Source: Elusimicrobiota bacterium
Lineage (GTDB): Bacteria; CAYTYR01; UBA6262
Direction: 5' to 3'
Assembly: GCA_003153935.1 (NCBI GenBank)
Contig: PMCA01000011.1
Location: 67,912 to 131,911, forward strand
Length of the DNA stretch: 64,000 nt
A model generated the notes under the pieces. It was not told where the DNA came from. It worked only from the letters and a program-made list of their open reading frames with translations, and did no database searches. A program made the translations under genes and the position numbers. This document shows, piece by piece, positions 1,660 through 52,693 of this stretch; position 1 is the first letter of the stretch, and every line of letters begins with the position of its first letter.

Positions 1660-1676
1660 ACCCCTTTCCTCAATGG

Positions 1677-2042: not shown

Positions 2043-2088
2043 AATTTATCGCCTCCCCCTTTTGTTGAGTTCGTTGAAAACCTGAACT

Positions 2089-2904: not shown

Positions 2905-2905
2905 T

Positions 2906-5119: not shown

Positions 5120-5123
5120 TGCC

Positions 5124-5678: not shown

Positions 5679-5680
5679 GG

Positions 5681-6244
5681 TTATCCTTCACTGCTAATGA
5701 TATACGTATATACCTGCAGGGTAACATCGATATAAGGCAGCTTTTCCGTATTGCGGGTGATCTTCAGGCTTTCCACCTTGATCAACCGTGGCAGTTTTTT
5801 CAAGTTAGCTAAATATTCGCCCAAATTACGGTAACGGCAGCGCATGGTGATCTCGATCGGCAGCCGGTTATAGGACAAACCTCCCTGCTGTTCCCCTGTT
5901 TCCAGGGGTTTAGTATTGATCGAAACATAAGTGATATTAGCCTGGTTGGCCACAGTGGCCAGGGCTTGCAGCAAGCTGGGGATCTGCTTGGAATCCGGCA
6001 GTTTATTCCTAAAGTACTGCCATTGCTGTTCCATCTTACCGGCTTCTTCGCGGATCTTATTCAGGTCCCGCAGAAATTCGTAGGCTCGTTGTATCTCATC
6101 GTTTATTTGTTGTATCTCCGCTTTTTGCTGCGCGATCTTATCACGGGCCGGCTGGATAAAGAAATACTGGCTGAAGCCGGCGATACCGGCGAAGATCAGG
6201 AAGTATTTCAATAAAGCCTTTTCTTTCGCGCCTATCTTTTTCAT
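5681..6244 (-). CDS. pilO: Type IV pilus assembly protein PilO
   Basis: 187 aa. N-terminal TM, coiled coil, C-terminal ferredoxin-like region. Sits between pilMN and pilP-like. Confidence 0.7.
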   Translation of the reverse strand: MKKIGAKEKALLKYFLIFAGIAGFSQYFFIQPARDKIAQQKAEIQQINDEIQRAYEFLRDLNKIREEAGKMEQQWQYFRNKLPDSKQIPSLLQALATVANQANITYVSINTKPLETGEQQGGLSYNRLPIEITMRCRYRNLGEYLANLKKLPRLIKVESLKITRNTEKLPYIDVTLQVYTYIISSEG

Positions 6245-8004
6245 GGTTGGCCGCCAAGCTCGTCTTTTAGTTTACACTGCACCTCGAACGTTATAAAATT
6301 TTTATTCTGTCCTGCCGCTTCCTGCTCCTTTTGCAGGGAGATCAAGTCGGTATCCTTAAAATAGGCCGATTTTTCCAGTGCTTGCAAGAACTGGGCCAGG
6401 ACCGCCTCCGGCCGGTCTCCTCCCAGCATCACCATGCCTTTTAAATTGAGAATGGGTAAGAGTGACGGCGGTGTTACTCTCGGAGTGCCAGCAGCTTCGG
6501 CTCCGGTGGTCGGCGGCGGAACCGCGGAGGCGTCAATTTTTTCCTTTTCAAAGGAAAGTTCATCCAAAATTACCCGGCCGGGGGTTATGTTGCTCAGGGA
6601 CTTGAGCATTTCTACCCATTTAGGATCTCCGACCGTCAATAGGTTGATTAAATTTTGCCGGGTGGTCATTTTTTCTTTTAATTGCTGCAGTTCATAGGCC
6701 TGGGATACCTGCTGTTTAATATCATCCAGGGCCGTCTGGTTGCTGGACACGATCTTCTGATAAGTCCTGATTTGCATGTACAATGAAATATAGACCATGC
6801 CAAAAATGAAAACTATCAGGAAACTGATAATGGCTGTCATAGCGCTGCGGGCAGTCTTAGAGGCCTGCTCCTTCAGCTCCTGCGGCAACAGGTTGATGCC
6901 TTTGGTACCGGTCAGCGCCGCGCCGACAGCAATGGATAATCGCGGGCTCAGTTCGGCCAGTTCTTTTTGGCGCTCCTCCGGCAAGTCCATCTGTATGTTT
7001 TTTAGGGGTTGGCTTACTTCGACGTCCATGCCTAAAGCGCCTTGCAGGAATTCACGCAACCCTTTTAATTCCGCGTTGCCGCCCAACAAAACTACTTTGG
7101 CCACCCGCCGGCCGCGCGATTCTTCTCGATAATAGTCCAGGGAACGGCGTATTTCGTTGGCCAACCGCTCCATCACCGGCCGCACTAAAGGCACGATCTG
7201 GTTGCTATTGATCTCGGGGGTCAACTGCTGGGGATTTTTTTCATCCGGAATGCCCCAGTTCTTTTTCAGGATATCCGCCTGATTTATATCTATTTCTATC
7301 TGCCCGCTGTCAGAGATCAGGGTGCCAACCATAGCCCGGGTGATGGTGTTGCCGCCTAGCGGAATCTCCCGGTTAAAGACCAGGGTTTCCCCAAAGAATA
7401 TGTTGATCGTGGTGGCTTCGGCGCCGGTATTGACCACGGCCAGGGCCTCATCAGCCTTGAAATAATCATTTTTCTTAAAGATCTCCCGCAGGGCGAAAGG
7501 CGCGACAGTGACGCTTTGCGGGCGTATCTGCACGTTCTGCAGCAGGGCCAGGTGCTGGTCGATAACGAATTTCTCTACGGCTACTACCAGCAGTTCCAGC
7601 TTCTTAACATTTTTATCGGTAACTTCTCCCAATACCTGATAATCTACTACCGCGTTCTCAATAGGGAAGGGGATGTGCTCCTTGGCTTCCCATTTCACCG
7701 CCTCCAGCAATTCATCTTTGGGCATGTTCGGCACCAACACTTTGCGTACCGACACGCGCTGGCCGGAGATCACCGTAACTATTCTGGTTTTTTTAAGATT
7801 GATCCCTTCGATACTTTTGCGCAATACCTCCAGGACTACTTCCATGGAAACATTTTCTTTTTTCTCGGTACTTAAGGGAAATTCACCTATGCGGTAGTCC
7901 ACTACCGCCAAGCCATTGACGCTTTCTTTCAGCACGATGACCTTAACCGCGGTGGTACCGATATCCAAACCCACCAAAGGTTGTATGTTACGGATGAATT
8001 TCAC
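6241..8004 (-). CDS. pilMN: PilM-PilN fusion protein (actin-like ATPase PilM fused to bitopic PilN)
   Basis: 587 aa. N-terminal ~360 aa PilM/FtsA-like (VGLDIGTTAVKVIVL, VVNTGAEATTINIF), then the INLLP motif that starts PilN, a TM helix (AMTAIISFLIVFIFGMVYISLY) and a periplasmic domain. Confidence 0.8.
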   Translation of the reverse strand: MKFIRNIQPLVGLDIGTTAVKVIVLKESVNGLAVVDYRIGEFPLSTEKKENVSMEVVLEVLRKSIEGINLKKTRIVTVISGQRVSVRKVLVPNMPKDELLEAVKWEAKEHIPFPIENAVVDYQVLGEVTDKNVKKLELLVVAVEKFVIDQHLALLQNVQIRPQSVTVAPFALREIFKKNDYFKADEALAVVNTGAEATTINIFFGETLVFNREIPLGGNTITRAMVGTLISDSGQIEIDINQADILKKNWGIPDEKNPQQLTPEINSNQIVPLVRPVMERLANEIRRSLDYYREESRGRRVAKVVLLGGNAELKGLREFLQGALGMDVEVSQPLKNIQMDLPEERQKELAELSPRLSIAVGAALTGTKGINLLPQELKEQASKTARSAMTAIISFLIVFIFGMVYISLYMQIRTYQKIVSSNQTALDDIKQQVSQAYELQQLKEKMTTRQNLINLLTVGDPKWVEMLKSLSNITPGRVILDELSFEKEKIDASAVPPPTTGAEAAGTPRVTPPSLLPILNLKGMVMLGGDRPEAVLAQFLQALEKSAYFKDTDLISLQKEQEAAGQNKNFITFEVQCKLKDELGGQP

Positions 8005-8028
8005 TCTTTTCCCTTTCGTACCGCAAAC

Positions 8029-8994
8029 TTAATATAAAGCCGCATTGCTGTAAACATTACTGCTGATCTGATCCCAGATGGAAGTTATATTGGTATTCGC
8101 CAAAGTACTCGGCATCACCCGGAAGATGGTAGCTCCCGGTCCGGGAGTACTGGTCAACACGCAACTGCGCACATATTTCTCGGTGAAACTGGCTCCGGAT
8201 ATGTTGTTAATGCGGCAGCGCGAGCGGATGCGTATCCAGGGCACTTCGATCTCGCTCATTTGCACCCGGTTCCCGCTATAACCGGTGATATTACACTGCA
8301 AATAATTAACGTCGGTAACAACAGCCGGAAAAATATCGTTCCACTGGTTGGTTCCGGGATCAACGGCCCGAGTATATCTAACCGTGTAAGTTACGCCGTC
8401 AGTCGAAGTAGACCAGGAATAATTTGTCGGCCGTCCCGCCGCTGCCGCTCCCTGGCGCCTCATTCTTATTTCATTAACGGCGTAATTAGAGCCGTTGGGG
8501 AACTGGATGGTCAAAGTTACCAGCGGGCCGGGGTTATTGACGGTCCGCCAACTGCTCGCCATATTACCATCCACGGCATTAGCCAGGACATTCGCTCCTT
8601 GTACGCCCACATTGGAAGTAATATTAGCGATACCAAAAGGCGCCGGATTAGTACTCAAAGCCAGATTCCAATTATCAACAAGGAAACTGTAACTTACCGA
8701 AAGATTATTTGGCAAATTCTCTGTCTGGGGACCGAAAGTTCCCAGGTTCCCGGCTGCCGGCTGGATCGTGTTCCAGATATTCAAGGAATTATTCTGTAAA
8801 TATTGCACCGCGCGGGCCTGGGCCGCGTCGGCGGCATAGAAAGCCTGGATGCCAGCTTGTTTAACGGCTACGTCCGCCGTACCCCGCCCGGTCAATTCTA
8901 TATAGGCGACCACTATGCCAGCGACCATGATAACGAAGAAAAATACGAAAATTAAGGCAAATCCGTTCTTTTTAGTTAATATTTTTAACGACAT
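8029..8994 (-). CDS. PilX-N family minor pilin-like protein with C-terminal discoidin (F5/8 type C)-like domain
   Basis: 321 aa. N-terminal hydrophobic PilX_N-like segment (GFALIFVFFFVIMVAGIVVAYIEL...AGIQAFYAADAAQARAV). C-terminal part matches the F5/8 type C pattern (ANAVDGNMASSWRT..PLVTLTIQFPNGSNYAVNEIRMRR...STDGVTYTVRY...VQMSEIEV). Confidence 0.6.
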   Translation of the reverse strand: MSLKILTKKNGFALIFVFFFVIMVAGIVVAYIELTGRGTADVAVKQAGIQAFYAADAAQARAVQYLQNNSLNIWNTIQPAAGNLGTFGPQTENLPNNLSVSYSFLVDNWNLALSTNPAPFGIANITSNVGVQGANVLANAVDGNMASSWRTVNNPGPLVTLTIQFPNGSNYAVNEIRMRRQGAAAAGRPTNYSWSTSTDGVTYTVRYTRAVDPGTNQWNDIFPAVVTDVNYLQCNITGYSGNRVQMSEIEVPWIRIRSRCRINNISGASFTEKYVRSCVLTSTPGPGATIFRVMPSTLANTNITSIWDQISSNVYSNAALY

Positions 8995-9530
8995 TATAGA
9001 TTCCGCGGATGTATTTCAAAACGCAAAGCCAAGTTTTGGGTATTTTTGGTTTCGTCAAGTGTCACGATTATCTGATTGCCGACACCGGAAAAATTAGTGC
9101 TGGGAGGTGGGTTTATACCATAGCAGAGTGAACGCCCCGAACCAAAAACCGGGACGCCATTATAGGTCATAAAACGTAATTCATAGGAAGCAAATGGGTA
9201 AGTGCTGGGCCAACCGGCATCACTGGGATTATAGAGGTAAAAGATACAGGATTCCGCGCCCGGAGTGGTCGGATCAACGTTGGCGGTAAAAATAATCCGC
9301 CCCGGATTAATGATCGTAAAAGTGCTGGCTTTCACTAAATAATTATTCATCAGGTCCCGGGCTTGGGATAACTCACCGCGCAGGTTATAAGTATCCTGGC
9401 CGCTGTTCCAGATTCTCATAACAGACGGGTAAAAAGAAACAGTTATGGCCAACAATATCGACAGGAGCGCTATGGCCACCAATAATTCGACTATCGTGAC
9501 ACCCTTCTGGCTGGGTATAATACTCTCCAC
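8994..9530 (-). CDS. Minor pilin / pseudopilin with prepilin N-terminal methylation motif (PilW-like)
   Basis: 178 aa. QKG|VTIVELLVAIALLSILLAI class III signal, then a beta-rich globular part. Confidence 0.65.
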   Translation of the reverse strand: MESIIPSQKGVTIVELLVAIALLSILLAITVSFYPSVMRIWNSGQDTYNLRGELSQARDLMNNYLVKASTFTIINPGRIIFTANVDPTTPGAESCIFYLYNPSDAGWPSTYPFASYELRFMTYNGVPVFGSGRSLCYGINPPPSTNFSGVGNQIIVTLDETKNTQNLALRFEIHPRNL

Positions 9531-9564
9531 CTCTACCTTAAATTATAAGCGCTATATATCTAAT

Positions 9565-9945
9565 TTAATAATTTCCAACGTAAGTTTCCAGTCTAGTCAC
9601 TGGATTGGTCGCCTGTTTAGCGGCCACATAGGAAACGCTGACCACCACGTCTTTTATCTGCCCGGGCAGGGCGCCGATGGGAGTGACAACTACTTGATAT
9701 GAATAATCTACATAAGGAGCGGCATAGGATGTCAGAGCCACCGGATTGACATTGGCGAAGGAGAGATTCTTTATGCTCTCCATTCTTTCCTGCGCCAGGG
9801 TAAGCGCTATGGAATTTTTCCCGGATAGCGAGTCATGATATTGTCCTTCACCCATAATAACCACTACCTCGGCCAAGCCGACCGCCAGGAGCGCGAAGGC
9901 GAAGATTATCTCAACAACCGTAAAACCGTGAGCATTCTTGAACAT
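9565..9945 (-). CDS. Minor pilin (PilV/GspI-like) with prepilin N-terminal methylation motif
   Basis: 126 aa. AHG|FTVVEIIFAFALLAVGL class III signal. Confidence 0.65.
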   Translation of the reverse strand: MFKNAHGFTVVEIIFAFALLAVGLAEVVVIMGEGQYHDSLSGKNSIALTLAQERMESIKNLSFANVNPVALTSYAAPYVDYSYQVVVTPIGALPGQIKDVVVSVSYVAAKQATNPVTRLETYVGNY

Positions 9946-9967
9946 AATCCCTTAAATAGCAGGTAGG

Positions 9968-10004
9968 GGTGGCTGTTTGAGCTTAATTAGGCCCAAACAG
10001 CCAC
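9968..10004 (-). terminator. Strong stem-loop (13-bp stem) just downstream of the major pilin gene. Putative partial terminator/attenuator.
   Basis: GGTGGCTGTTTG-agcttaattagg-CCCAAACAGCCACC. No clean U-tract follows on the minus strand, so a leaky terminator is more likely than a strong one. Confidence 0.4.
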
Positions 10005-10045
10005 CTGTATACCTAAATTAAATTAATTTAATTTGTATCTGCCTA

Positions 10046-10594
10046 CTAGTTGCTCTGAGGTGTGCCATTGGAAACATAAATCGATGTTCCCGCTGCGGTT
10101 ACTGCTCCGGTAGCCGCAGTTGTGCACGCCGTGTTCACCCGGCCGGTGCCGTTGGACCAGATCACGTAATATCCTTGGGCATTGACATAAAAGCCATACT
10201 CCACGGCTCCCGCTGCCGGCGAGAACGGATCCATTAATTCCGCGCTCAGCATGATCGGGCCGTTGGTTCCCAGCACGTTAGTAGTATGGTCAACAGTCAA
10301 GTGCGTGGTCATCCAACCCGTACCGGATACTCTTGAACCAGTATACGCCGCCTGTGCGCCGGTATCGGTATTATCAGGATACTTGGCTAACCCAGTAGAG
10401 CGTGGCGCAGCCGCATAAGCCTCTACGGCAGTACGCAGGGTCGCCAGATTTGACCTGGCCTTGGATTTTGCTCCCTCGTCCTGCATCCCTCTGAAACGTG
10501 GCAAACTAATACCGATTAAAATAGCAATGATTGCCATCACTATCAGAAGCTCGATAAGGGTAAATCCTTCCTTGTTCTTAAAAGCTCTCATCAT
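10046..10594 (-). CDS. pilA: Type IV major pilin / GspG-like pseudopilin (PilA-like)
   Basis: Class III signal MMRAFKNKEG|FTLIELLIVMAIIAILIGISLP. The ORF track start at 10648 adds an unlikely 28-aa leader, so the internal Met at 10594 is preferred. Mature part is rich in Gly, Thr and Ala, as in pilins. Confidence 0.7.
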   Translation of the reverse strand: MMRAFKNKEGFTLIELLIVMAIIAILIGISLPRFRGMQDEGAKSKARSNLATLRTAVEAYAAAPRSTGLAKYPDNTDTGAQAAYTGSRVSGTGWMTTHLTVDHTTNVLGTNGPIMLSAELMDPFSPAAGAVEYGFYVNAQGYYVIWSNGTGRVNTACTTAATGAVTAAGTSIYVSNGTPQSN

Positions 10595-10652
10595 TTTTTT
10601 CACCTCCTTTCTTTTTGAAATATACCACAATTCACTTACTCTATTCAAGTTT

Positions 10653-11861
10653 TTACTTAACCACCTTCATCATATCAAACATCGGCAAGAAGACGCTGGC
10701 CAGCAGGAAGCCCACGGCCGAGCCCACCAGAATCAGGAACACAGGTTCGATCAGAGTAGTAAGCTTTTTAACGCTATAACTGACGTTGGTATCATAAAAA
10801 TCAGCTATCTTGGTGAGCATGGTGTCCAGACTGCCGGATTCTTCGCCGACCGCGATCATCTGGATGGTATCCGGCGGGAATTCCTCACTGATACGCAACG
10901 GCTCAGCGATCTTGCTACCTTCAGTTACGCCTTCCCTGACCCGCCTGATAACCCGGGCGATAATTTCGTTGCCTACAACTTTTTCCACTATCTCCAAAGA
11001 TTCCAGGATAGGTACGCCGCTGGCTGTTAAAGTAGCCAGGGTGCGGGCAAACCTGGCGATGGCTATTTTGCGGGCCAGCACACCCACTACCGGGACCTTC
11101 AACAGGTATTTATCAAACATCAGGGTGCCGGCGGGAGTGGCAAAATACCATTTCAGCGTGACCCAGACCCCGATAAAACCGGCGATAATTACATACCAGA
11201 ATTTCCGGACTATCTGGCTGAAAATAAATACTATCTGCGTCGGCATCGGTAATTTGACGCCGGCTTTCAGGAATACATCAACGAACATCGGGATGAGAAA
11301 GATGGACAGGAACATGATCACGGAGAACCCGACTATCACCAGGATGATGGGATAAACCATCGCGCCTTTTATTTTTTCTTCCAGGTCCGCCTGGTGTTCG
11401 GCGAAAATGGCCAGACGGTTCAAGACCGTATCCAGGGTGCCGCTGACCTCGCCGGCATGTACCATGTGGATCGTCAATTTATTGAAGACCCGCGGATGCT
11501 TGGCCAAGGCGTCGGAAAAAGTGCCGCCGGCCTCGATACCGCGGTAGACGTCCTGGATGATCTCCCGGAACTTGCGGTTTTCCACCTGTTTGGTCAAGGT
11601 ACGCAAACTGGTCAGTAATGACAAGCCCGCACCAATCATATTGGCTAACTGTACGTTAAAAAGGATCAGGTCCTCGTTCTTTACTTTGACAAACCTGTCG
11701 CCAAAACCGAGCTTGATCCCGGATTTTTGTTCCGTGATATCGGTTACAAAATAGCCGATGCTTCCTAATTTGGACGCCAAGGCTTCCCGGTTCTTGGCTT
11801 CCATCACGCCTTTTATCTGTTTGCCCATTTCGTCCCGGGCTTTATAAACGAAAACTGCCAT
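10653..11861 (-). CDS. pilC: Type IV pilus inner-membrane platform protein PilC (GspF family)
   Basis: 402 aa. Two GspF repeats, three TM segments, typical PilC N-terminus. Confidence 0.9.
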   Translation of the reverse strand: MAVFVYKARDEMGKQIKGVMEAKNREALASKLGSIGYFVTDITEQKSGIKLGFGDRFVKVKNEDLILFNVQLANMIGAGLSLLTSLRTLTKQVENRKFREIIQDVYRGIEAGGTFSDALAKHPRVFNKLTIHMVHAGEVSGTLDTVLNRLAIFAEHQADLEEKIKGAMVYPIILVIVGFSVIMFLSIFLIPMFVDVFLKAGVKLPMPTQIVFIFSQIVRKFWYVIIAGFIGVWVTLKWYFATPAGTLMFDKYLLKVPVVGVLARKIAIARFARTLATLTASGVPILESLEIVEKVVGNEIIARVIRRVREGVTEGSKIAEPLRISEEFPPDTIQMIAVGEESGSLDTMLTKIADFYDTNVSYSVKKLTTLIEPVFLILVGSAVGFLLASVFLPMFDMMKVVK

Positions 11862-11879: not shown

Positions 11880-13583
11880 TTAATCTTCCTGGGTGGCCCT
11901 GATCACCTCGTCCACCGTGGTAACGCCTTGCAGAACTTTCAATATACCGTCATCGCGCATGGTTTTCATCCCGGCCAGCACCGCTTCCTTGCGCACTACG
12001 TCCATAGAGGTTTTCTGGACGATCAGGCTGCGGATCTTATCATTAGGCAACATAAGCTCGAAAATACAAATACGTCCCTTGTAGCCGGTACCCATGCAGG
12101 TCTTACAGCCTTTGCCATGGTATACCTTCACCCCTTTTTTTGCCGGGTCAATACCGGCCTGCTGCAATAGTCCGTCCGGTGGTTTGAATTCTTCCTTGCA
12201 ATTGGGGCAGATCTTGCGTACCAGGCGCTGGCCGATAACCGCCAGCACCGATGAGGAAACCAGGAACGGCTCCACACCCATATCTACCAACCGGGTAACC
12301 GCGCCCGGCGCGTTATTGGTATGCAGGGTGCTGAAGACCAAATGACCGGTAAGAGCCGCCTGGATGGCGATCTCCGCCGTCTCCAGGTCTCTGATTTCTC
12401 CGACCATCACCACGTCCGGGTCCTGACGCAGAATAGCGCGCAAGCCGGAGGAAAAGGTCAGCCCGGCCTTAACGTTGACCTGCGCCTGCCGGATAAGTTT
12501 TAACCTATATTCCACCGGGTCCTCAACGGTTATGATATTTTTATCGATGGTATTAATAACATTCAAGGAGCTGTAAAGGGTGGTGGTTTTACCGCTGCCG
12601 GTAGGCCCCGTCACCAAGACGATACCGTAAGATTTTTTAATCGTTTTATTAAATTCTTCCAGGACATCCGGCGCGAACCCAAGTTGTTCCAGCCCCAGCA
12701 GGGCTTTGGATACGTCCAGGATCCTCATGACGATATTTTCGCCGTAAATAGTGGGCAAGGTAGAGACACGCATGTCCACCTGCCGGTTCTCCACCTTGAT
12801 GCGGAACCGGCCGTCCTGCGGCACGCGTTTTTCGGCGATATCCATTTCGCTCATGATCTTGACGCGTGACAAAATAGCGGCCTGGATGTTCTTAGGCGGC
12901 GCCGGCACTTCCTGCATCACCCCGTCTATGCGATAACGGATGCGGAGCATGTTCTCTTCCGGCTCGATATGTATGTCGCTGGCTCCATCCCGGATAGCAT
13001 TCATGATTAGCAGGTTCACCAGTTTTATGACCGGCGCTTCTTCCGCCAGGTCCTGTAATTTTTTAGCCTCGATGTCATGTTCGCCAGTCCCGAGCAGTTC
13101 GCCTTCGTCCTCTTCGATCTTCTTGATCACTTCGTCCATGGTGCCGGTGACGCCGTAATACTGGTCGATCGCCCTTTTAATATCGCTGTCCGTAGCCAGC
13201 GCCGGTTCCACCGTGCAACCCGCTTTCAGGCTGACTTCGTCGATAGCAAAAACGTTCAGAGGATCCGCCATGGCTACAGTTAAAGTATCGCCGATCTTGA
13301 ACAACGGCACCAGCTGGTATTTCCTGGCAACGTATTCTGGTACCAGGTTGACCGTTTCCGGGTCCACCAGGTAATCCTTCAGGTCGACATGCGGTATGCC
13401 GAGCTGCTCACCGAGAAAACTGACCAGGGCCTCTTCACTGATCAGGTTCAGCCGCACTAACACCTTGCCCAGCCTCTCGCCGGATTCATGCTGTACTTTC
13501 AAGGCCTCATCGATCTGCTGTTTGCTTACCAGCCCAGCCTCTACCAGTATTTCCCCTAATTTTTTCTTCTCGCCTTTTACCAC
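11880..13583 (-). CDS. pilB: Type IV pilus assembly ATPase PilB (GspE family)
   Basis: 567 aa. GspE_N/MshEN N-domain, Walker A GPTGSGKTTTLYS, Asp/His boxes, tetracysteine motif CPNCK...CKTCMGTGYKGR. Confidence 0.9.
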   Translation of the reverse strand: MVKGEKKKLGEILVEAGLVSKQQIDEALKVQHESGERLGKVLVRLNLISEEALVSFLGEQLGIPHVDLKDYLVDPETVNLVPEYVARKYQLVPLFKIGDTLTVAMADPLNVFAIDEVSLKAGCTVEPALATDSDIKRAIDQYYGVTGTMDEVIKKIEEDEGELLGTGEHDIEAKKLQDLAEEAPVIKLVNLLIMNAIRDGASDIHIEPEENMLRIRYRIDGVMQEVPAPPKNIQAAILSRVKIMSEMDIAEKRVPQDGRFRIKVENRQVDMRVSTLPTIYGENIVMRILDVSKALLGLEQLGFAPDVLEEFNKTIKKSYGIVLVTGPTGSGKTTTLYSSLNVINTIDKNIITVEDPVEYRLKLIRQAQVNVKAGLTFSSGLRAILRQDPDVVMVGEIRDLETAEIAIQAALTGHLVFSTLHTNNAPGAVTRLVDMGVEPFLVSSSVLAVIGQRLVRKICPNCKEEFKPPDGLLQQAGIDPAKKGVKVYHGKGCKTCMGTGYKGRICIFELMLPNDKIRSLIVQKTSMDVVRKEAVLAGMKTMRDDGILKVLQGVTTVDEVIRATQED

Positions 13584-13602: not shown

Positions 13603-13986
13603 TTACTTCTTCATGCCTTGTTCAATGGTTTGGTTAATCTTCCTGATAAGTTCTTCCGGTTCGAATGGCTTGGTCATATAAACGTCGGCTCCGGTCTTAA
13701 AACCAGTCTCCTTATCCACTTCCTGCATGCGCGCGGTCAGCATGATGATCGGAATATGTTTATATTTGTCGTCAAATTTTAATATCCGGCAAACTTTGAA
13801 ACCGTCCATTTTGGGCAACATTATATCCAGGACTATCAGGTCCGGGTTTTCCGTCCGGGCCATTTCCAAGCCCTGGAAGCCATCCATAGCCAAGACAATG
13901 GTAAACCCAGCACTCTCCAAATTCATTTTCACTAATTCCCTGATCAAAGCGTCATCTTCAACTACCAGGATCTTTTTACCGGCCAT
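13603..13986 (-). CDS. Stand-alone response regulator receiver protein
   Basis: 127 aa REC domain (KILVVEDDALIREL...LIVLDIMLPKMDG...MLTAR...YMTKPF). Confidence 0.8.
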   Translation of the reverse strand: MAGKKILVVEDDALIRELVKMNLESAGFTIVLAMDGFQGLEMARTENPDLIVLDIMLPKMDGFKVCRILKFDDKYKHIPIIMLTARMQEVDKETGFKTGADVYMTKPFEPEELIRKINQTIEQGMKK

Positions 13987-14106: not shown

Positions 14107-14472
14107 TTATTCAAGCAGTTTCGTAATTTTTTCCGCCAGGCTTAACGGATCAAAAGGCTTGGTTATGTATTCATCAGCACCGGCAGCCAGTCCCTTTTCG
14201 ATCTCGTCTTTCTGCGCTTTGGCCGAGATCATGATGACCTTGGTGCCCGCGGTCTCCGGATGGCTTTTTATCTGCCGGCAAACCTCGTAGCCGTTCAGAT
14301 CCGGCATCATCACGTCCAGCAGGACCAGGTCGGCTTTTACCTCCAGCGCCTTAGCCAGCCCTTCCCGCCCATTATGAGCGCGAATGATCGTAAACTTGTC
14401 TGGTTCGAAACTATATTCGAACAGGTCCAAGATCAAAGGATCATCATCTACGATCAATATTTTTTTTGTCAT
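14107..14472 (-). CDS. Stand-alone response regulator receiver protein
   Basis: 121 aa REC domain (KILIVDDDPLILDL...LVLLDVMMPDLNG...ISAK...YITKPF). Confidence 0.8.
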   Translation of the reverse strand: MTKKILIVDDDPLILDLFEYSFEPDKFTIIRAHNGREGLAKALEVKADLVLLDVMMPDLNGYEVCRQIKSHPETAGTKVIMISAKAQKDEIEKGLAAGADEYITKPFDPLSLAEKITKLLE

Positions 14473-14476
14473 CCTA

Positions 14477-17020
14477 TCAACCCATGATCCTGTCGATTTC
14501 CGCTACCAGCTCCTTGACTTTGAACGGCTTGGTTATATAGCGTAAAGCCCCCAATTCCAGGCCTTTCCTTTTATCTTCATCCATCTTGCGGGCGGAAATA
14601 ATTATTACCGGTATCCGCTGGATAAATAGGTCCGGATCGGCCTTCAGCTGCTTCAGTACTTCATACCCGTCCAGCTTGGGCATCATCACATCCAGCAGGA
14701 TCAGAGCCGGTTTCAATTCTTTCGCTTTAGCCAGAGCCTCTTCGCCGTCTATGGCCACTTTGGTGTTATATCCCTCTTCCGACAGGGTGATCTTGATAAG
14801 TTCAACTACGTTAGGCTCATCGTCAGCGATCAGGATGGTGCCGCGCTTCTTGCCGCCGCGCACACCCAGGGTCTCGCTGACCTTGGATAACAATTGCTTC
14901 TTATCTACCGGTTTATTCAGATAATCAACCACGCCCATCTGGCGGGTCTGGCTCTCTTTATCCTGTAAGATAGAAACTATCATTACGGGAATATCTTTGG
15001 TTTGGGTGTCTTCTTTGAGCGCTTTCAATACCTGGATGCCATCCATATCAGGCAATTTTATATCCAGGAGTATTAAATCTGGTTTGGCTTCCCGCGCTTG
15101 CTGTAATGCCTGGTACCCGGTCAGGGCCCAGATAACGTGATAGCCTTCATCCTCCAGGTATATCTTATGCAGGTTGAGGATGTCCTGTTCGTCGTCCACC
15201 AGCAGAATGGTTTTTTGCCCGGGTAGTGCGTGCCGGCCGCGGGCCTCACCCAACAGCTCGCCTTCACTGGAAACAGGCCGGAAAGCCGGCAAAGTAAAGC
15301 AGAAACGGCTGCCTTTGTTGGGCCCGTCACTTTCGGCCCAGACCTTGCCTTCATGCATCTCTACGATCCTCTTGACAATGGCCAATCCCAGGCCGGCCCC
15401 GCCGGTTTGCCGGGTCGATGATGAATCCACCTGGTAGAATTTTTCGAATATTTTTTCCAGTTCCTCCGGGGGAATGCCGATACCGCTGTCACTGATGCGC
15501 GCTTCCACCTGGTTCTTGTCTTTTTCAAAAATTTCAATGATGACTTTGCCGTTTTCCGGGGTGAACTTAAAAGCGTTAGTGAGGAAGTTGGCCAGTACCT
15601 GCAGCAACTTATCTTTATCGGCGTAGACAAAGGGCAGGTCATCCTGGATGATGGCGGTCAAACTTATCTTTTTCTGGTCGAAATGGGAACGCATGCGCTC
15701 GATCACGGTTTCCGTCAGCGCTTTCAGGCTGATCGAAGCTTTGTTCATCCGGACCTGGCCGGCTTCGATGCGGGAGAGGTTCAGCAGGTCGGTGATCAAA
15801 GTGGTCAAATGGTCGCTTTGCTCTTCCACGATCTTGAGGAATCTTTTCTGGCTATCGCTGATCTCGCCGGCACGGCCGGCTAGCATCAGGGCGGTATAGC
15901 CCTTTATCGAAGTTAAAGGGGAGCGCAACTCATGGGAAACCATGGAGAGGAAATCGCTCTTGGCCTGGTTTAATTCGCGTAACTTCACCACTAACTGCTG
16001 TTCCTGGGAATAAAGCCGGGCGTTTTCCAGCGCTACTGCGGCCTGGTCGCCAAAAGCCCGTACCAGGTCGATCTGGTGCTGCGTGAATTGTCCGGGATTC
16101 TTGGTGTAAAGGCAAAAAGCGCCTTTAGCCATGTTCTTTACTATCAGGGGGACGCAAAGCAGGGAAGCCATTTTTTCTTGCTGGACGATGGGATTGGACT
16201 GGTACGCCTCATCCCGGTTTAACTCCGGGATGATGACCACGCGTTTTTCCTGTATGGTCTTCCCGGTAATACTGTTATCTACCCGGACAGACTGGGGGTG
16301 AAGGTTGGTATCAACCCCGTAGCTGGCGCTGAGGATCAACTCCTGGCCGGTTTCGTTGAGCAGCCGCAAAGTACAGGCATCCGCCCTGGCAAATTCGGTT
16401 ATGGACCTGACGATAAAATCCAGCACTTCTTTCAAGTCCAGGCTGGCGCCCATCAAGGTGCATAATTTGATCAGTGACTGCAATTCTTTTTGCTGTAACC
16501 AATTCTCTTTTTCCACTTGTTTGAGAATGGTTATATCGGTGAAAAGGTAGATAGAGCCGGCTATTTTGTTCTGGCGGTAGAGAGGCAGGACCTTAACCAT
16601 GGTTTCCATGATGTGACCGCTCTTAGACCGGATGGTGGTTTGGATGAGGCGTTGCTCAGCGGCTTTGCGGTAATTGATCTCTGTTTTAAGCTTATCGCGT
16701 TCGGATTCAACTATCAATTCGGACAGGTTTTTGCCCCGCAACTCGGACGCGGTAAATTCCAGGAATCTTTCGCCGCTGTAATTGACAAAGGTGATGCTCT
16801 CAGTCAGATCGCAGGCAACAACGGCGTCCACTCCTTCGGTCAGAACGCTGGTGGCGATCTCTCTTTCCCCGTCCATGTCGCCGAAATCAAGATCAGGGTC
16901 CTCAGTGCGCAGGGCCAGCTTTCTTATGCCCCTGTTCTGCCAAAAAATACCGGCCAATAACACTGTGATGATACCGATGAAAACGAGCAAGAAGACATTG
17001 AAGACTTGATTGATGGTCAT
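14477..17020 (-). CDS. Hybrid sensor histidine kinase (TM-PAS-GAF-HisKA-HATPase_c-REC-REC)
   Basis: 847 aa. N-terminal TM, PAS-like and GAF regions, H-box SHELRSPLTSIKGY, ATP-binding G-boxes (DSGIGIP, GGAGLGLAIVKR), two C-terminal receivers (ILLVDDEQDI...LLDIKLPDMDG and ILIADDEPNV...LLDVMMPKLDG). Confidence 0.85.
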   Translation of the reverse strand: MTINQVFNVFLLVFIGIITVLLAGIFWQNRGIRKLALRTEDPDLDFGDMDGEREIATSVLTEGVDAVVACDLTESITFVNYSGERFLEFTASELRGKNLSELIVESERDKLKTEINYRKAAEQRLIQTTIRSKSGHIMETMVKVLPLYRQNKIAGSIYLFTDITILKQVEKENWLQQKELQSLIKLCTLMGASLDLKEVLDFIVRSITEFARADACTLRLLNETGQELILSASYGVDTNLHPQSVRVDNSITGKTIQEKRVVIIPELNRDEAYQSNPIVQQEKMASLLCVPLIVKNMAKGAFCLYTKNPGQFTQHQIDLVRAFGDQAAVALENARLYSQEQQLVVKLRELNQAKSDFLSMVSHELRSPLTSIKGYTALMLAGRAGEISDSQKRFLKIVEEQSDHLTTLITDLLNLSRIEAGQVRMNKASISLKALTETVIERMRSHFDQKKISLTAIIQDDLPFVYADKDKLLQVLANFLTNAFKFTPENGKVIIEIFEKDKNQVEARISDSGIGIPPEELEKIFEKFYQVDSSSTRQTGGAGLGLAIVKRIVEMHEGKVWAESDGPNKGSRFCFTLPAFRPVSSEGELLGEARGRHALPGQKTILLVDDEQDILNLHKIYLEDEGYHVIWALTGYQALQQAREAKPDLILLDIKLPDMDGIQVLKALKEDTQTKDIPVMIVSILQDKESQTRQMGVVDYLNKPVDKKQLLSKVSETLGVRGGKKRGTILIADDEPNVVELIKITLSEEGYNTKVAIDGEEALAKAKELKPALILLDVMMPKLDGYEVLKQLKADPDLFIQRIPVIIISARKMDEDKRKGLELGALRYITKPFKVKELVAEIDRIMG

Positions 17021-17056: not shown

Positions 17057-18490
17057 CTAGAAAATTTCCGAATACAGAGTCACCTGATTGCGTCCGTGAG
17101 CCTTGCCCCAGTTCAGCGCTTCCTCACTCATCTTCAAAAGTTCTTCCTTGTCATCCGTATCGCCGGGGAAAGTACCCAACCCCATGGTTATGGTAATGTT
17201 GATCACCCCGTTGGGAACAACAAACCCGTGATTTTCCACCAACTGCCTGATACGCCCGGCCACGGCCCGGGAGCCGTCACGCGGCGTGTTTGGCAGGATC
17301 ATGGCTATGCCGTCACCCTCAAAACGGGCGGCGAAATCGACTTCTCGGGTATTATGCATGCAGATCTTGGCCAGTTCACACAGGATTGTGTCGCCCACCG
17401 GATGGCCGTAGGTATCATTGTATACTTTAAAATGGTCCACGTCGAGGATCAGCAGTGACATTTCCTGCTTAAAGCGCTTGGCCCGTGCCAGTTCTTCGCC
17501 TAGTCTCTGGTTAAAGTATTTCTGCACGTACAGTTTGGTCAGGCTGTCAACGATGGTGGCCTCTTCCATTCTCTTGGCCAGGCGGATACTCTGGATCGCT
17601 GTGGCCATCTGATTGCCGAACAGCAATAAATACTTTTCGTCTTCAGCGGACAGCAATTGTTTGGAAAAAACGTTATCGATAGTCAGGACGCCAAGGTATT
17701 CGTCTTTGGTCTTAATCGGCAGGTTAATTATGGGTTTGTGGCGGATATCGTCTACCTGTTTGGAAAATAATGTATCGACTACTTCATTTATGCCGGGGCG
17801 GAGAGGATACTTGTACTCCTCTATCGAACGGACAGTGCCGCCGGCATCCACGGCCATTTTGCCGTTAAGCATATTCTTATCCTGGTCGATCAGGAACAGC
17901 TTGGCCCGATCCACTCCCAGGTGCTTGACGATATTCTTCAGGATTATTTCCAGCGCTTCGCCCAGGTCCATGGTGCGTACGATCGAATTATTGATCCGGG
18001 ACAAAACTAATAGTTCATCGGTCAGGTTCTGGTTCTTCTCTTGCAGGGAGGCGCCTTCGATGCCAATCTCGAATTTACCCACGAATTCCTGCGCCCGTTT
18101 CGTTTGTTCGTCGCTAAAAGGCGTTTTGGATACCATCATATCCGCCCGCAGGATAGCAATCACGCCGCTGTCATTCCTGATGGGCAGATAAAGGGTCAAC
18201 CCGTTATCGGCGAGCACGCATTCTTTTTTCCCCAAAGCCAATTCGCTGAGGCCAAGATCGCCGCTCTCGGTGGAGATCTTTTCTTCCAGGTTAAGCAGGC
18301 CCTTGCCGTCAATGATAAATCGGCTTTTAAAAACTTGCTCGTTCTTATCCAGGAGAAAGACCGTGGCCCGGTCGCAGTTTACATAGTTCAGGAGGGCTTG
18401 TAATCCTTTCTTCAATACCGCGTCTAATCCATTTTTGATATCTTTGAAGGCTTCTACCAGTTCTTCCCAGACCTTTTTCTGCTCGGCCAT
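17057..18490 (-). CDS. Tandem GAF-domain protein with degenerate GGDEF domain (A-site EGDGI instead of GGEEF; I-site RxxD intact)
   Basis: 477 aa. Two GAF-like regions, then a GGDEF fold with DSLT, DVDHFKVYNDTYGH and GD motifs present. The signature reads R-EVD-FAARF-EGDGI-AMIL. Confidence 0.8.
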   Translation of the reverse strand: MAEQKKVWEELVEAFKDIKNGLDAVLKKGLQALLNYVNCDRATVFLLDKNEQVFKSRFIIDGKGLLNLEEKISTESGDLGLSELALGKKECVLADNGLTLYLPIRNDSGVIAILRADMMVSKTPFSDEQTKRAQEFVGKFEIGIEGASLQEKNQNLTDELLVLSRINNSIVRTMDLGEALEIILKNIVKHLGVDRAKLFLIDQDKNMLNGKMAVDAGGTVRSIEEYKYPLRPGINEVVDTLFSKQVDDIRHKPIINLPIKTKDEYLGVLTIDNVFSKQLLSAEDEKYLLLFGNQMATAIQSIRLAKRMEEATIVDSLTKLYVQKYFNQRLGEELARAKRFKQEMSLLILDVDHFKVYNDTYGHPVGDTILCELAKICMHNTREVDFAARFEGDGIAMILPNTPRDGSRAVAGRIRQLVENHGFVVPNGVINITITMGLGTFPGDTDDKEELLKMSEEALNWGKAHGRNQVTLYSEIF

Positions 18491-18560: not shown

Positions 18561-18604
18561 TAAAAACCCCTAGCCAAATTTAAGCATTTTAGCTAGGGGA
18601 AAAT
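18561..18604 (-). terminator. Rho-independent terminator for the 18632..19405 gene (8-bp GC-rich stem CCCCTAGC/GCTAGGGG, then a U-run on the minus strand)
   Basis: Minus-strand sequence is aattttCCCCTAGCtaaaatgcttaaatttgGCTAGGGGttttta, directly downstream of the stop at 18632. Confidence 0.55.
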
Positions 18605-26362: not shown

Positions 26363-26857
26363 TTACTCGTTTTTAAGGTGGGTGTAGCTTTCCAGAGTTA
26401 CCATTTGCTCGTTCTTAGCTAAAACCAGCTTGATATAGATGCAGCGCGGATCCTCATCCGGGGGAATAGTGGCCGGATTGCTTTTGGCGAAATATATCTG
26501 ATTTAAATTGGCGGTAACGGTGCTTTCCACTCCATTCAATTGACGCCATAAGGTCGTGCCGTTTAAATAATAGCTCACGTTGAAGGTCCCGGTATCCTTT
26601 ACCATAGTGAAAGATATTTTGCTGTTGGCCGGCGTAGCTCCAGTATATACTACGACTGTGGACGCTTGCGCTTGCCGGATATACTGGGTCATTTCGTCCA
26701 TAGCTACCCGGGCGCCCTGCTGTACTTCTACCTGGGAATAATTCTTCTTCCAGCTTTTGGCAGTGTTTTCAAAAAATCTAGCACCAGCTATAACCAGCAC
26801 CCCCATTATCATGACTACCATCATGATTTCTGTGAGGGTAAACCCTTTATCCTTCAC
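26363..26857 (-). CDS. Pseudopilin / minor pilin with prepilin N-terminal methylation motif (GspJ/PilW-like)
   Basis: 164 aa. DKG|FTLTEIMMVVMIMGVLVIAG class III signal. Confidence 0.65.
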   Translation of the reverse strand: MKDKGFTLTEIMMVVMIMGVLVIAGARFFENTAKSWKKNYSQVEVQQGARVAMDEMTQYIRQAQASTVVVYTGATPANSKISFTMVKDTGTFNVSYYLNGTTLWRQLNGVESTVTANLNQIYFAKSNPATIPPDEDPRCIYIKLVLAKNEQMVTLESYTHLKNE

Positions 26858-26907
26858 GCTGTCCCCCGAGAGCCTAAACTTTCTTCCCTACGGACATATT
26901 ATACTGA

Positions 26908-28323
26908 TTATTTCACTTCTTGCCAAGTAATAATTTTAAATGGGTACAAGCTGTCGGCATTGCTTATGGCGGTGGGGTCGTAAAGTATATCCGCAGTGCC
27001 AAGGATAGCCGCCACATCAACCATGGATTGGGTCAAGATACTACCGCGAATTAAGGCATGCCCGGCCATATGAAAACTGCCTAAGACATAGATAACGCCG
27101 TCGAATTGTCCGCCGCCATTCATGTCAAAATCGCCATTTACTATCAAGATCCCGCTGCCCGACCAGCCCGCATTGACATGAAAATTACCCTCGATCCAGG
27201 TGATCCCATGGCAAGCCACGTTATTGGCCGGGTTATAATATTTAGCATTGGCAAACCCAACTAATTGCGCCTGGGTCAAACCGAAAACATCTTCAAAACT
27301 GGGGAAGGGAGCGTTCCCTGTGGGAGGATTGCCGGCGACTGAACCGCTGCCAAAGGTGTTGACATTGTTGCCCACAGGCACCAGCACCCCGGTTATAGAA
27401 CCGCCGCCAATATGGGCGTTACCGCCTATGTTAACGTTACCGCCGCATGTCAACGCGCTGTCCACGGAGATATTGCCCGCTAATTTTTCGACGGTTGCTT
27501 TTATCTTCTTGGAATATACGCTTACTTTACTGGTAGACAATATGTCCCGTTTATTGGGAAAGCCGGCCGGCGTGGAAACAACCACAGTAAATTGGCCCTC
27601 TCCTAACGAAGTCCCGTCCTCTCCGGCATAGCTGGCGTCTCGGTTCAATTCCCACATCGCTTTTTCTATCCCGGCGTCAGCTACATAAAGAGCGCTATTC
27701 CCCTTACTGCTTTTTACGGTTTTTTGGCTTTCGCTCCTGGTAACATAAACCAAGGAAGTGCCTATACCTAAAACAATGATCAGTACGCCTACGGCAAATA
27801 GCAGGGTATTACCTCGGTTATCTTTGACCTTCATTTTCCTGACTAGGATGAAGATCCCAAACCCTAACAGGACTAAAAGCATCGCTCCCGGCAGCCAGAT
27901 AGGCCAGCCAGAGCCACTTTCTTCATTGGCCAAGGCTTTTTCTCTGGCTTGCGCTGCTTCTTTATTAATCATGACCATTGATGGTGCTGGTTGGCTGCCT
28001 ATAGGGGATACCGTGTTCGTATTTTGGTTAGCTGGTATATTAAGCTTGTCACTGTTGGCCTTCTTCCTGGCAATTTCCTCTTTGGAAGGCATGGGATAGG
28101 ACCTGGGCGCCGGCTTAACCAGGGGAACCTTGATACCTGATAAGGCTTTGGCTTTCTTTTCAGTAAGGATCTGCTGTTTCATGGCATCTTCGCGAGCTAC
28201 AGCGCTACTCAAGTCCGGGACGCCATCAGCCACGTTCCGTAAAGCAAACACCTGACTGCAAACCGTTATTAACATTAATGTCATTATTACTGAAGTTAAT
28301 AAAACCTTATGTTTCGACATCAT
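26908..28323 (-). CDS. PilX-N family protein with N-terminal 160-aa extension and C-terminal Gly-rich beta-helix-like repeats
   Basis: 471 aa. Residues ~163 onward (MKVKDNRGNTLLFAVGVLIIVLGIG...ALYVADAGIEKAMWEL) align with the start of the downstream paralog. C-terminal repeats GGNVNIGGNAHIGGGSITG...VNGDFDMNGGGQFDGVIYVLGSF. The start abuts the upstream stop, which supports the long form. Confidence 0.55.
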   Translation of the reverse strand: MMSKHKVLLTSVIMTLMLITVCSQVFALRNVADGVPDLSSAVAREDAMKQQILTEKKAKALSGIKVPLVKPAPRSYPMPSKEEIARKKANSDKLNIPANQNTNTVSPIGSQPAPSMVMINKEAAQAREKALANEESGSGWPIWLPGAMLLVLLGFGIFILVRKMKVKDNRGNTLLFAVGVLIIVLGIGTSLVYVTRSESQKTVKSSKGNSALYVADAGIEKAMWELNRDASYAGEDGTSLGEGQFTVVVSTPAGFPNKRDILSTSKVSVYSKKIKATVEKLAGNISVDSALTCGGNVNIGGNAHIGGGSITGVLVPVGNNVNTFGSGSVAGNPPTGNAPFPSFEDVFGLTQAQLVGFANAKYYNPANNVACHGITWIEGNFHVNAGWSGSGILIVNGDFDMNGGGQFDGVIYVLGSFHMAGHALIRGSILTQSMVDVAAILGTADILYDPTAISNADSLYPFKIITWQEVK

Positions 28324-28332
28324 CCCTCCGGA

Positions 28333-45296: not shown

Positions 45297-45298
45297 GC

Positions 45299-45658: not shown

Positions 45659-45659
45659 T

Positions 45660-45794: not shown

Positions 45795-45845
45795 TGTTCC
45801 TCCTAAGAAGTAACTTGCTTTTAACAATGTGCTAATATACCCCAT

Positions 45846-48777: not shown

Positions 48778-48779
48778 GT

Positions 48780-49904: not shown

Positions 49905-52693
<2,789 letters not shown>

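Follow-up and report, generated by a model that had tools for sequence, protein, structure and literature searches.

An EGDGI-type GGDEF protein with a complete I-site at the head of a type IV pilus gene array: a candidate c-di-GMP receptor

Introduction

The DNA considered here, called the window throughout, is a stretch of 64,000 nucleotides on contig PMCA01000011.1 of an Elusimicrobiota bacterium; all positions are those of the window. Our subject is one of its reverse-strand genes, the target gene, which encodes a soluble protein of two GAF domains and one GGDEF domain. It is followed in the same direction by genes for a hybrid histidine kinase, two CheY-like response regulators and a type IV pilus machine (Table 1). 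Its GGDEF domain has the variant signature EGDGI and a complete inhibitory site (I-site). The protein has very probably lost the activity of a diguanylate cyclase and instead probably senses cyclic diguanosine monophosphate (c-di-GMP) made by other enzymes.

Table 1. The target gene, its parts and the other features of the window
Feature	Position	Strand	Basis or remark
Target gene	17057-18490	-	ATG-to-stop open reading frame, 477 aa, cytoplasmic GAF-GAF-GGDEF, signature EGDGI
GAF-1, divergent (residues ~21-150)	18041-18430	-	hhalign vs GAF-2, Foldseek, conservation
GAF-2 (residues 175-300)	17591-17968	-	Pfam GAF_3 E 1.4e-9, GAF E 4e-8
GGDEF domain (residues 313-469)	17084-17554	-	Pfam, pLDDT, Foldseek, site table
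I-site RxxD R382-E-V-D385	17336-17347	-	alignment to PleD R359/D362, translation
Third I-site Arg R413	17252-17254	-	alignment to PleD R390
Variant signature E391-G-D-G-I395	17306-17320	-	alignment and motif census
Intrinsic-terminator-like hairpin ending the upstream gene	18562-18599	-	12-bp stem, 9-nt loop, UUUUU
Promoter-like TTGACA-17 nt with TG-TAAATT	18560-18532	-	best sigma-70-like match in 6.2 kb scanned, 10/12
Shine-Dalgarno sequence GAGGAGG	18503-18497	-	6 nt ahead of ATG
Hybrid histidine kinase, transmembrane-PAS-GAF-HisKA-HATPase-REC-REC	14477-17020	-	Pfam; 36 nt downstream of target
CheY-like response regulator 1	14107-14472	-	open reading frame; Pfam Response_reg E 6e-29
CheY-like response regulator 2	13603-13986	-	open reading frame; Pfam Response_reg E 2e-29
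PilB-type assembly ATPase with MshEN	11880-13583	-	Pfam T2SSE E 5e-144, MshEN E 1.5e-24
Remainder of pilus machinery, PilC to PilQ	3566-11861	-	Pfam
PilC	10653-11861	-	Pfam
Three pilin-like genes	10046-10648, 9565-9945, 8994-9530	-	Pfam
F5/8-type-C protein, 321 aa (discoidin, galactose-binding-like)	8029-8994	-	Pfam
Fused PilM-PilN, 587 aa	6241-8004	-	Pfam
PilO	5681-6244	-	Pfam
184-aa protein without assigned family	5124-5678	-	
PilQ secretin	3566-5119	-	Pfam
Chemosensory genes directly after pilQ	604-3445	-	Pfam: CheW 2906-3445, CheR 2089-2904, CheB 604-1659
CheY-like protein, 121 aa	1677-2042	-	Pfam
GAF-HD-GYP protein	32196-33428	-	Pfam HD_5 E 1.6e-39; intact HD (276), GYP (337)

Domain architecture

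The GGDEF domain is recognised without difficulty. It covers positions 2-161 of the 161 in profile PF00990 (E 1.6e-37, 129.2 bits with a cut-off of 23.8) and also matches TIGR00254 (E 2e-40, 138.2 bits vs a cut-off of 37.4). For the named cyclase equivalogs of NCBIfam (DgcA, PleD, SiaD, DgcR and others) the protein stays far below the cut-offs, DgcA being the best with 138.6 of 370 bits. Pfam thresholds are passed by one GAF domain only, that of residues 175-300, and about 165 N-terminal residues have no Pfam match. A GAF-1 profile made from 7 orthologues aligns with the GAF-2 profile in hhalign with a probability of 96.9% (E 1.5e-10). The weak sequence matches of the N-terminal region in the PDB are GAF proteins without exception. 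The N-terminal ~165 residues are a divergent GAF domain, and a tandem GAF module is present.

Two AlphaFold models were built. The first, based on an alignment of 11 orthologues, left the GGDEF domain at a pLDDT below 50; the second used 113 sequences and brought this domain to 91-98. The first ~300 residues are confidently modelled (pLDDT 80-96 in the N-terminal ~165), and a long helix (residues 282-313) joins GAF-2 to the GGDEF domain. With the first model as query, Foldseek ranks highest the tandem GAF-A/GAF-B modules of PDE2A, CyaB2 and PDE5/6 (E ~1e-12; PDE2A 1mc0 at 5e-13, with CyaB2 1ykd also matched). The GGDEF domain, palm-like in its fold, superimposes on 3ign with a template-modelling (TM) score of 0.95 and a root-mean-square deviation of 1.4 Å, and on DosC with a TM score of ~0.9. 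The closest match of the full-length model is a phytochrome-linked cyclase of Idiomarina, with its layout of sensor, coiled coil and GGDEF domain. Inspection of the GAF domains by eye revealed no convincing NKFDE-type motif for the binding of cyclic nucleotides. The GAF-GAF-GGDEF architecture proposed in an initial annotation of this DNA is thus borne out, by Pfam for GAF-2 and the GGDEF domain and by hhalign and Foldseek for GAF-1.

The signature and the two nucleotide sites

Aligned by phmmer with 6d9m, WspR and PleD, the target shows no gap in the critical region, and REVD falls on RxxD and EGDGI on GG(D/E)EF. Positions 17306-17347(-) translate as REVDFAARFEGDGI, that is, RxxD in the form R382-E-V-D385, then FAARF, then E391, with a spacing to the signature of exactly five residues. 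In the predicted hairpin, E391-G392-D393 is the turn (391-393) between strands b2 (386-390) and b3 (394-400). The fold motifs DxLT (D315-S-L-T318), DxDxFKxxND (D350 to D359) and GD (G366-D367) are all there. From PleD to the target, the register is D327/D350, K332/K355, N335/N358, D344/D367, R366/R389, E370/D393, R390/R413, K442/K463 and R446/R467. A motif census of all 477 residues found no canonical GG(D/E)EF elsewhere. The initial annotation had proposed the register R-EVD-FAARF-EGDGI, the three fold motifs and a retained RxxD, and these readings stand.

Compared with an active enzyme, just three signature positions differ: Gly-1 is replaced by Glu, Glu-4 by Gly and Phe-5 by Ile. The active-cyclase signature [G/A/S]-G-[D/E]-E-[F/Y] is found neither in the target nor in any orthologue, all of which have EGDG[IV]. 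We call this target family group A. G394, which stands in place of the position-4 glutamate (E371 in PleD), is invariant in all 15 group-A sequences. The contacts to Mg (D350, D393), to guanine (N358, D367) and to phosphate (K463, R467) are kept and are equally invariant. Their counterparts in the PleD structures are the Mg ligands D327/E370, the guanine contacts N335/D344 and the phosphate contacts K442/R446. The I-site triad of R382, D385 and R413 (R359, D362 and R390 in PleD) is complete and invariant in group A, too.

What do these changes imply? For the general base, which would work across the dimer, the position-4 glutamate has been put forward, and an E-to-Q mutant of GacA is inactive (PMC6456294). 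The same article, citing Malone 2007, states that WspR needs this residue as well. Position 1 is far more tolerant: the AGDEF enzyme VCA0965 and the SGDEF enzyme ECA3270 are active, and of the 20 residues tried at position 1 of VCA0965, activity was reported for no others than A, G, H and M (PMC3974145). Since VCA0965 and ECA3270 are active, a change at position 1 alone cannot be taken as inactivating. The decisive lesion is the loss of Glu-4, because it is position 4 that has been published as the general base and position 1 that is tolerant. Cyclase activity has thus very probably been lost, which we infer from mutants of other enzymes. The initial annotation had attributed the loss to both substitutions; the argument from Glu-4 is sound, and that from Gly-1 is weak by itself, since Ala, Ser and His or Met are tolerated there.

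For the I-site, the nearest experimental precedent is PelD, in which binding of c-di-GMP, as seen by isothermal titration calorimetry, needs the three residues R/D/R (PMC7112168). It is rather probable that the target, too, binds c-di-GMP at this site.

A Hypr GGDEF domain, i.e., a cGAMP-forming enzyme of the GacA type, was also considered. Its hallmark is a serine in place of the aspartate at the guanine-recognition position (PMC6456294). This candidate was rejected, as the residue at the position of PleD D344 is D367, an invariant aspartate.

Evolutionary constraint

EGDG[IV] is found in 10 of 10 database orthologues, which are 65-97% identical to the target, and in 6 species-representative genomes. 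The labels of the latter read Elusimicrobia, "bacterium" or Clostridia, the last of these being probably an error. Two metagenome-assembled genomes titled "uncultured Clostridia bacterium" (L012, i.e. CAYTYR010000020.1, and L016) hold clear orthologues of the locus; the title is probably a taxonomic mislabel. Because every orthologue shares EGDG[IV], the motif is not an artefact of sequencing or assembly.

When the window is compared with three orthologous loci, synonymous sites prove saturated (pS 0.73-0.96). This precludes a dN/dS ratio, and conservation was gauged by amino-acid identity instead, with nearby housekeeping genes as the yardstick. Between orthologues the GGDEF domain is 75-87% identical, vs 61-70% for MetRS and 59-67% for Tmk, which puts it near PilB and PilC. 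GAF-1 is the least conserved part of the protein (43-63%). All 14 functional positions of the GGDEF domain are invariant in the 15 group-A sequences, against a background of 101 invariant positions out of 163 (hypergeometric P ~8.5e-4). Because the domain outconserves MetRS and Tmk despite the saturation of synonymous sites, the target gene is not a decaying pseudogene, nor is the EGDG[IV] variant a product of decay.

The invariance is not confined to the I-site. Since the target clade shows no variation at any of the other residues that bind GTP or Mg, a point absent from the initial annotation, the GGDEF domain likely binds GTP. One may therefore consider a pseudo-enzyme that is loaded with GTP and Mg without turning GTP over and that works as a GTP sensor, the I-site being of secondary importance or none. 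The constancy of the Mg, guanine and phosphate contacts and of K355 and R389 speaks for such a sensor, as does a domain that scores like an enzyme both in Pfam (129 bits) and in structural superposition on 3ign. We consider it unlikely, for reasons that come from the relatives of the protein.

Relatives of the protein

In a word-indexed search, the matches drop from orthologues at 65% identity to paralogues at ~35%, and the paralogues are all canonical. An exhaustive profile search reveals a family of GAF-GAF-GGDEF proteins of 465-510 aa with full-length matches (residues 8-476) of 230-350 bits. Nearly all of these wider-family members carry GG(D/E)E[FLIM] together with RxxD. The genomic context was examined for four canonical ones, P0121, P0122, P0124 and P0138. 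Three of them (P0121, P0124, P0138) directly follow a gene for a solute-binding protein; behind P0122 come a response regulator and a FixC-like gene. Downstream of P0121 and P0124 there are no pilus genes, and the contig of P0138 ends too early to judge.

P0125 (L030, 7871-9331, in GCA_017973895.1) is the sole other pilus-linked member found, a distant orthologue by position. Its GGDEF domain is 44% identical to that of the target and has the signature GGDDI. The gene order reads 3D, ..., carbohydrate-binding module (CBM), ..., solute-binding protein, GGDEF protein, hybrid kinase, three response regulators, PilB (with MshEN), PilC and pilins. Its active site is wrecked by D350C, N358I, R467G and the exchange of Glu-4 for Asp; the I-site residues equivalent to R382, D385 and R413 are intact. 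Of 200 neighbour-joining bootstraps with the motif columns masked, 118 pair P0125 with the target clade as its sister. With a solute-binding protein upstream and kinase, response regulators and PilB downstream, P0125 resembles an intermediate between the cyclases linked to solute-binding proteins and the pilus-linked pseudo-cyclase.

Inside this family, an altered signature thus appears to coincide with linkage to a pilus operon. What the pilus-linked lineages have in common is the I-site, not the active site, and therefore a c-di-GMP receptor is favoured. The contrast offered by P0125 is the strongest argument for a receptor that we have. It also bears on the GTP sensor: P0125 retains the I-site but has lost Mg, guanine and phosphate contacts, and so the function conserved throughout the lineage cannot be the binding of GTP. 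Of course, the two readings are mutually compatible, and a c-di-GMP receptor may also hold GTP.

The initial annotation had concluded that the protein is likely a receptor rather than a cyclase. This conclusion gains from P0125, though not from the RxxD motif alone, which virtually all canonical cousins have as well and which is not diagnostic. Its premise that proteins of this kind are usually sensors goes too far, for TmoK is able neither to make c-di-GMP nor to bind it (PMC4877007).

Gene neighbourhood

Upstream, the target gene is well delimited. The terminator-like hairpin folds with -18.3 kcal/mol as RNA (z -4.26; none of 200 shuffles was as good), and its upstream neighbour is the stop codon of a gene for a coiled-coil membrane protein. 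It is followed by the promoter-like sequence and the Shine-Dalgarno sequence of Table 1. Downstream, the gaps are short: 36 nt from target to kinase, 4 nt from kinase to response regulator 1, 120 nt between the two regulators and 19 nt from the second one to PilB. No terminator-like site was found on the coding strand in these intergenic gaps. To say that the target gene heads the pilus array, as the initial annotation did, is a fair description; with terminator, promoter and Shine-Dalgarno sequence in front, tight co-directional genes run as far as PilQ and CheB.

The two C-terminal receivers of the hybrid kinase look canonical by eye, with the acidic pocket, the phospho-acceptor Asp, Thr/Ser and Lys. 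In the Caulobacter kinase ShkA, c-di-GMP binds to a pseudo-receiver domain; the architecture is alike, yet neither receiver here looks degenerate. The F5/8-type-C protein encoded among the pilin genes is conserved in L003 and may be a pilus-associated adhesin. The CheW, CheR, CheY-like and CheB genes after pilQ may open a chemosensory system of the Pil-Chp or Frz-like type that is coupled to the pilus; neither CheA nor a methyl-accepting chemotaxis protein was found between pilQ and the end of the window.

Genes farther upstream of the target are housekeeping genes. The flanking tmk, holB, metG and tatD are collinear across the orthologue genomes, too, and for this reason conserved synteny is little evidence of a functional linkage. 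Upstream of the housekeeping block lies a second pilin-like group, again on the reverse strand (26363-29763 and 29780-30226) and syntenic in L001-L003. It comprises an N_methyl protein (26363-26857), two ~470-aa proteins without Pfam match and a 148-aa open reading frame (29780-30226, -) with the pilin-like N-terminus KRGFTLIE. Possibly, it is what the initial annotation had in mind when it spoke of a pilus supercluster. The region of the replication origin is at 45084-55198, with yidD-like, rnpA, rpmH and yidC on the reverse strand and dnaA, dnaN, recF, gyrB and gyrA on the forward strand. Near 44-48 kb the GC skew switches from one sign to the other; the pilus operon is ~27 kb from the origin and co-oriented with the replication of its arm.

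The pilus may, of course, have nothing to do with the target. The protein might be a regulator that responds to c-di-GMP or to a GAF ligand and that pairs with the adjacent kinase only or acts elsewhere, its proximity to pilB being a lineage-specific accident. Such an output apart from the pilus is in line with a synteny that spans tmk, holB, metG and tatD, with the non-pilus contexts of canonical family members and with the 120-nt gap between the regulators, which could hold a second promoter. We nevertheless hold it to be improbable. The order GGDEF-kinase-regulator-PilB-PilC-pilin recurs in the divergent genome of P0125, where the upstream neighbours differ; the gaps from target to PilB are short and contain no coding-strand terminator-like site; and a kinase plus CheY-like regulators directly before pilB resemble known pilus-control modules.

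Two other proteins encoded in the window concern c-di-GMP itself. The GAF-HD-GYP protein, 14 kb from the target and with a hydrophobic N-terminal segment, is likely a c-di-GMP phosphodiesterase, judged by its intact motifs. It is the sole other domain of a c-di-GMP turnover type in the window; PilZ, EAL and a second GGDEF domain were not found there, small open reading frames in gaps included. The second is PilB, whose N-terminus holds tandem 24-residue motifs of the MshEN type (residues 8-31 and 37-60), conserved in orthologues. They read KLGEILVEAGLVSKQQIDEALKVQ-HESGE-RLGKVLVRLNLISEEALVSFLGEQ, HESGE being a five-residue spacer. According to the motif definition and relaxed pattern of PMC5013675, motif 1 fits, whereas motif 2 has Asn at the turn Gly, where G/A/S is required. 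Going by these motifs, PilB is probably a c-di-GMP receptor itself. Because an intact GAF-HD-GYP protein is encoded nearby and PilB has its tandem MshEN motifs, the organism plausibly uses c-di-GMP.

Recurrence of the motif

The combination of Glu-1 and Gly-4 is not unique to the target. When 185,579 species genomes were scanned with the back-translated pattern R-[FY]-E-G-[DE]-G-h-x-hhh-P, 25 matches emerged vs ~17 calculated for chance. Of these, 13 lie inside GGDEF domains and form three groups. Group A is the target family. Group B consists of PAS x4-GGDEF(EGEGF)-HD-GYP proteins of ~920 aa in Omnitrophota-type metagenome-assembled genomes (L005, L006, L009, L019, L025, L027, L034). Group C is a PAS-GGDEF(EGDGM) protein of 299 aa in a Desulfococcus metagenome-assembled genome (L010). 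Two further groups come from the control scan described next: D, a protein with two GGDEF domains in tandem, of which one is canonical and the other has EGDGI (L047/L057/L077), and E', a fragment with EGDGF (L053/L081).

A control scan, for which position 1 was left free and RxxD was required, was run on metagenomes (L031-L086), that is, on a collection other than that of the species-genome scan. It yielded 50 genuine GGDEF domains with Gly-4. Clustered into families, 26 have G at position 1, 4 have S and 3 have E, with A and D in one family each. The GG[DE]G[FLIM] variants make up ~26 mostly singleton families that keep Gly-1 and RxxD; most of them otherwise retain the active-site residues. 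They may be recent inactivations, functional variants or sequencing errors. With groups A and C added, Glu-1 occurs in 5/37 Gly-4 families vs 1/~270 canonical domains (Fisher p 1e-4); if the count is restricted to the unbiased scan, it is 3/35 families (p 0.005). In the sampled domains Glu-1 is thus ~20-40 times commoner with Gly-4 than with Glu-4.

In neighbour-joining trees without the motif columns, groups A, B and C were joined as a clade in 0 of 200 bootstraps, and the D+E pairing was seen in 54 of 200. The nearest neighbours of the groups are canonical domains (47%, 42% and 40% identity), whereas identities between groups are 29-34%. By the evidence of these trees and identities, EG[DE]G is a motif that arose independently at least three times, and up to five. 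Groups C, D and E' carry further active-site lesions, and group B lacks the equivalent of R446. EG[DE]G would generally mark inactive, regulatory GGDEF domains, which agrees with the fusion to HD-GYP in group B, the tandem arrangement in group D and the additional lesions. None of the papers in the collection searched mentions EG[DE]G motifs.

Group B is also of interest to the idea of a GTP sensor, as a GGDEF domain fused to HD-GYP is a classic GTP-sensing regulatory setting. A GTP sensor would resemble the GTP-binding GEDEF domain of Caulobacter PdeA, which was reported by Christen et al. (2005) to activate the EAL domain of that protein. The damage to the active sites of groups C, D and E' again argues against GTP sensing as the general role.

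The overrepresentation of Glu-1 invites another thought: the target could be an active, unorthodox cyclase, in which Glu-391, located in the same hairpin turn, takes the place of the general base and local c-di-GMP is provided for the MshEN motifs of PilB. The residues that bind substrate and metal are intact and invariant, and position 1 is the most tolerant one, AGDEF, SGDEF, HGDEF and MGDEF being active (PMC3974145). Moreover, the canonical family members are sensor cyclases. Against this stand rather strong objections. Loss of Glu-4 abolishes activity wherever tested (PMC6456294, citing Malone 2007), and Glu is not among the active position-1 residues of VCA0965 (PMC3974145). Most of the independent EG[DE]G lineages bear additional lethal changes in the active site, and the sister P0125 is clearly dead. 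Finally, most Gly-4 variants keep Gly-1, i.e., there is no obligatory coupling of the two positions. An active target thus appears very improbable.

The more general assumption that a Gly1/Glu4 swap keeps catalysis was demoted, as most Gly-4 variants keep Gly-1 and most EG[DE]G lineages have otherwise lethal changes. A doubtful and more speculative possibility is that EG[D/E]G followed by a hydrophobic residue is a distinct, convergent state of the hairpin, in which Glu-1 would be a substitute base or would lock GTP/Mg in a non-hydrolysable form, as a GTP-loaded switch. If so, the target would be a slow or tightly gated cyclase that feeds the MshEN motifs of PilB, or such a switch.

A proposed function

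We favour the following scheme. The target would be a soluble, probably dimeric sensor made of two GAF domains, a long helix and a pseudo-enzymatic GGDEF domain. The GGDEF fold and the GTP/Mg pocket are kept and the general base of position 4 is lost, so that c-di-GMP would be synthesised barely or not at all. The I-site triad would bind c-di-GMP from other enzymes, as in PelD and SgmT. This binding, together with signals received by the GAF domains, would alter the conformation or the partnerships of the protein. The altered protein would modulate the co-transcribed hybrid kinase and the two CheY-like regulators, and this module would set the activity of the downstream type IV pilus machine. 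The link to the kinase and to the pilus is one that we infer. For the chain as a whole, from pseudo-cyclase through I-site receptor to modulation of kinase and pilus, we consider the case for and the case against about evenly balanced.

Several points weigh against the scheme. The invariant contacts to Mg, guanine and phosphate are not needed by a pure I-site receptor; their conservation suggests that GTP binding or some residual chemistry matters, which the scheme leaves unexplained. Almost every canonical relative has RxxD, and its retention could be due to inheritance instead of selection for a receptor. The link to the pilus consists of gene order in collinear genomes plus the one more distant genome of P0125, and the support for P0125 as the sister is moderate (59%). 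A canonical cyclase was not found in the 64-kb window.

On balance, the target has the sequence-level features of I-site receptors such as PelD and SgmT and lacks the signature and the general base of an active cyclase. The current annotation of these proteins as "diguanylate cyclase" (e.g., P0007) is then probably wrong. If the scheme is right, the theme of a dead cyclase that serves as receptor for a surface appendage extends to bacteria of the Elusimicrobia type, most of which are not in culture and whose c-di-GMP signalling is unstudied. The locus would offer a compact, testable module of receptor, hybrid kinase, two CheY-like regulators and an MshEN-containing PilB. The series from canonical proteins outside pilus operons via GGDDI with a wrecked active site to EGDG[IV] with an otherwise intact one would be a natural experiment on the way from enzyme to receptor. 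For c-di-GMP specialists, a regulator of the PelD/SgmT kind is a familiar type and little surprise; the unexpected part is the recurrence of EG[DE]G. It could improve automated calls of active and degenerate GGDEF domains, and it would gain weight only if the pairing of Glu-1 with Gly-4 proved functional.

Comparison with known systems

The active enzymes VCA0965 and ECA3270 share with the target a substitution at position 1 and an intact RxxD; they differ in having kept the glutamate of position 4. The canonical relatives P0121-P0153 are like the target in length, architecture and RxxD. They differ by their GG(D/E)E[FLIM] signature and in that no pilus genes were seen downstream of the four examined. 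DmxA of Myxococcus xanthus, too, has a GAF-GAF architecture. Its cyclase is active, and pilus-dependent motility requires it (PMC4877007).

PopA of Caulobacter and CdgA of Bdellovibrio are degenerate GGDEF proteins that act as I-site receptors for c-di-GMP in regulatory cascades (PMC3974145). Their N-termini, compared here by description, are receivers or other domains and not tandem GAF domains, and their outputs are cell-cycle proteolysis and predation. In the FimX-PilZ-PilB system of Xanthomonas and Pseudomonas, PilB and pilus assembly are coupled to c-di-GMP by a protein whose GGDEF domain is degenerate (PMC8389850). FimX, however, binds c-di-GMP via a degenerate EAL domain, not via a GGDEF I-site, and acts through a PilZ adaptor, and neither EAL nor PilZ was found in the window.

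SgmT of M. xanthus comes closer. It is a hybrid kinase whose degenerate C-terminal GGDEF domain works as I-site receptor, and its mutants are defective in motility by type IV pili (PMC4877007; also PMC3509222). Kinase and receptor are joined in one polypeptide in SgmT, whereas here they are encoded by adjacent genes. SgmT acts via the DNA-binding DigR on matrix genes; here, the regulators are CheY-like single-domain proteins encoded beside pilB.

PelD of P. aeruginosa and Bacillus cereus shares with the target the sequence of a GAF domain and a catalytically dead GGDEF domain, and it is encoded in the operon that it controls. A membrane anchor and a single GAF domain set PelD apart from the target, which is soluble and has two GAF domains and a nearly intact active site. 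The GGDEF domain of PelD is too degenerate to be detected by a sequence search from the target, and its output is polysaccharide synthesis. PelD 4etz is nonetheless among the Foldseek matches of the first target model. PelD binds c-di-GMP through the R and D of RxxD and a third arginine ~32 residues further on (R395 in PelD of B. cereus; PMC7112168), and this is the layout of R382, D385 and R413 in the target.

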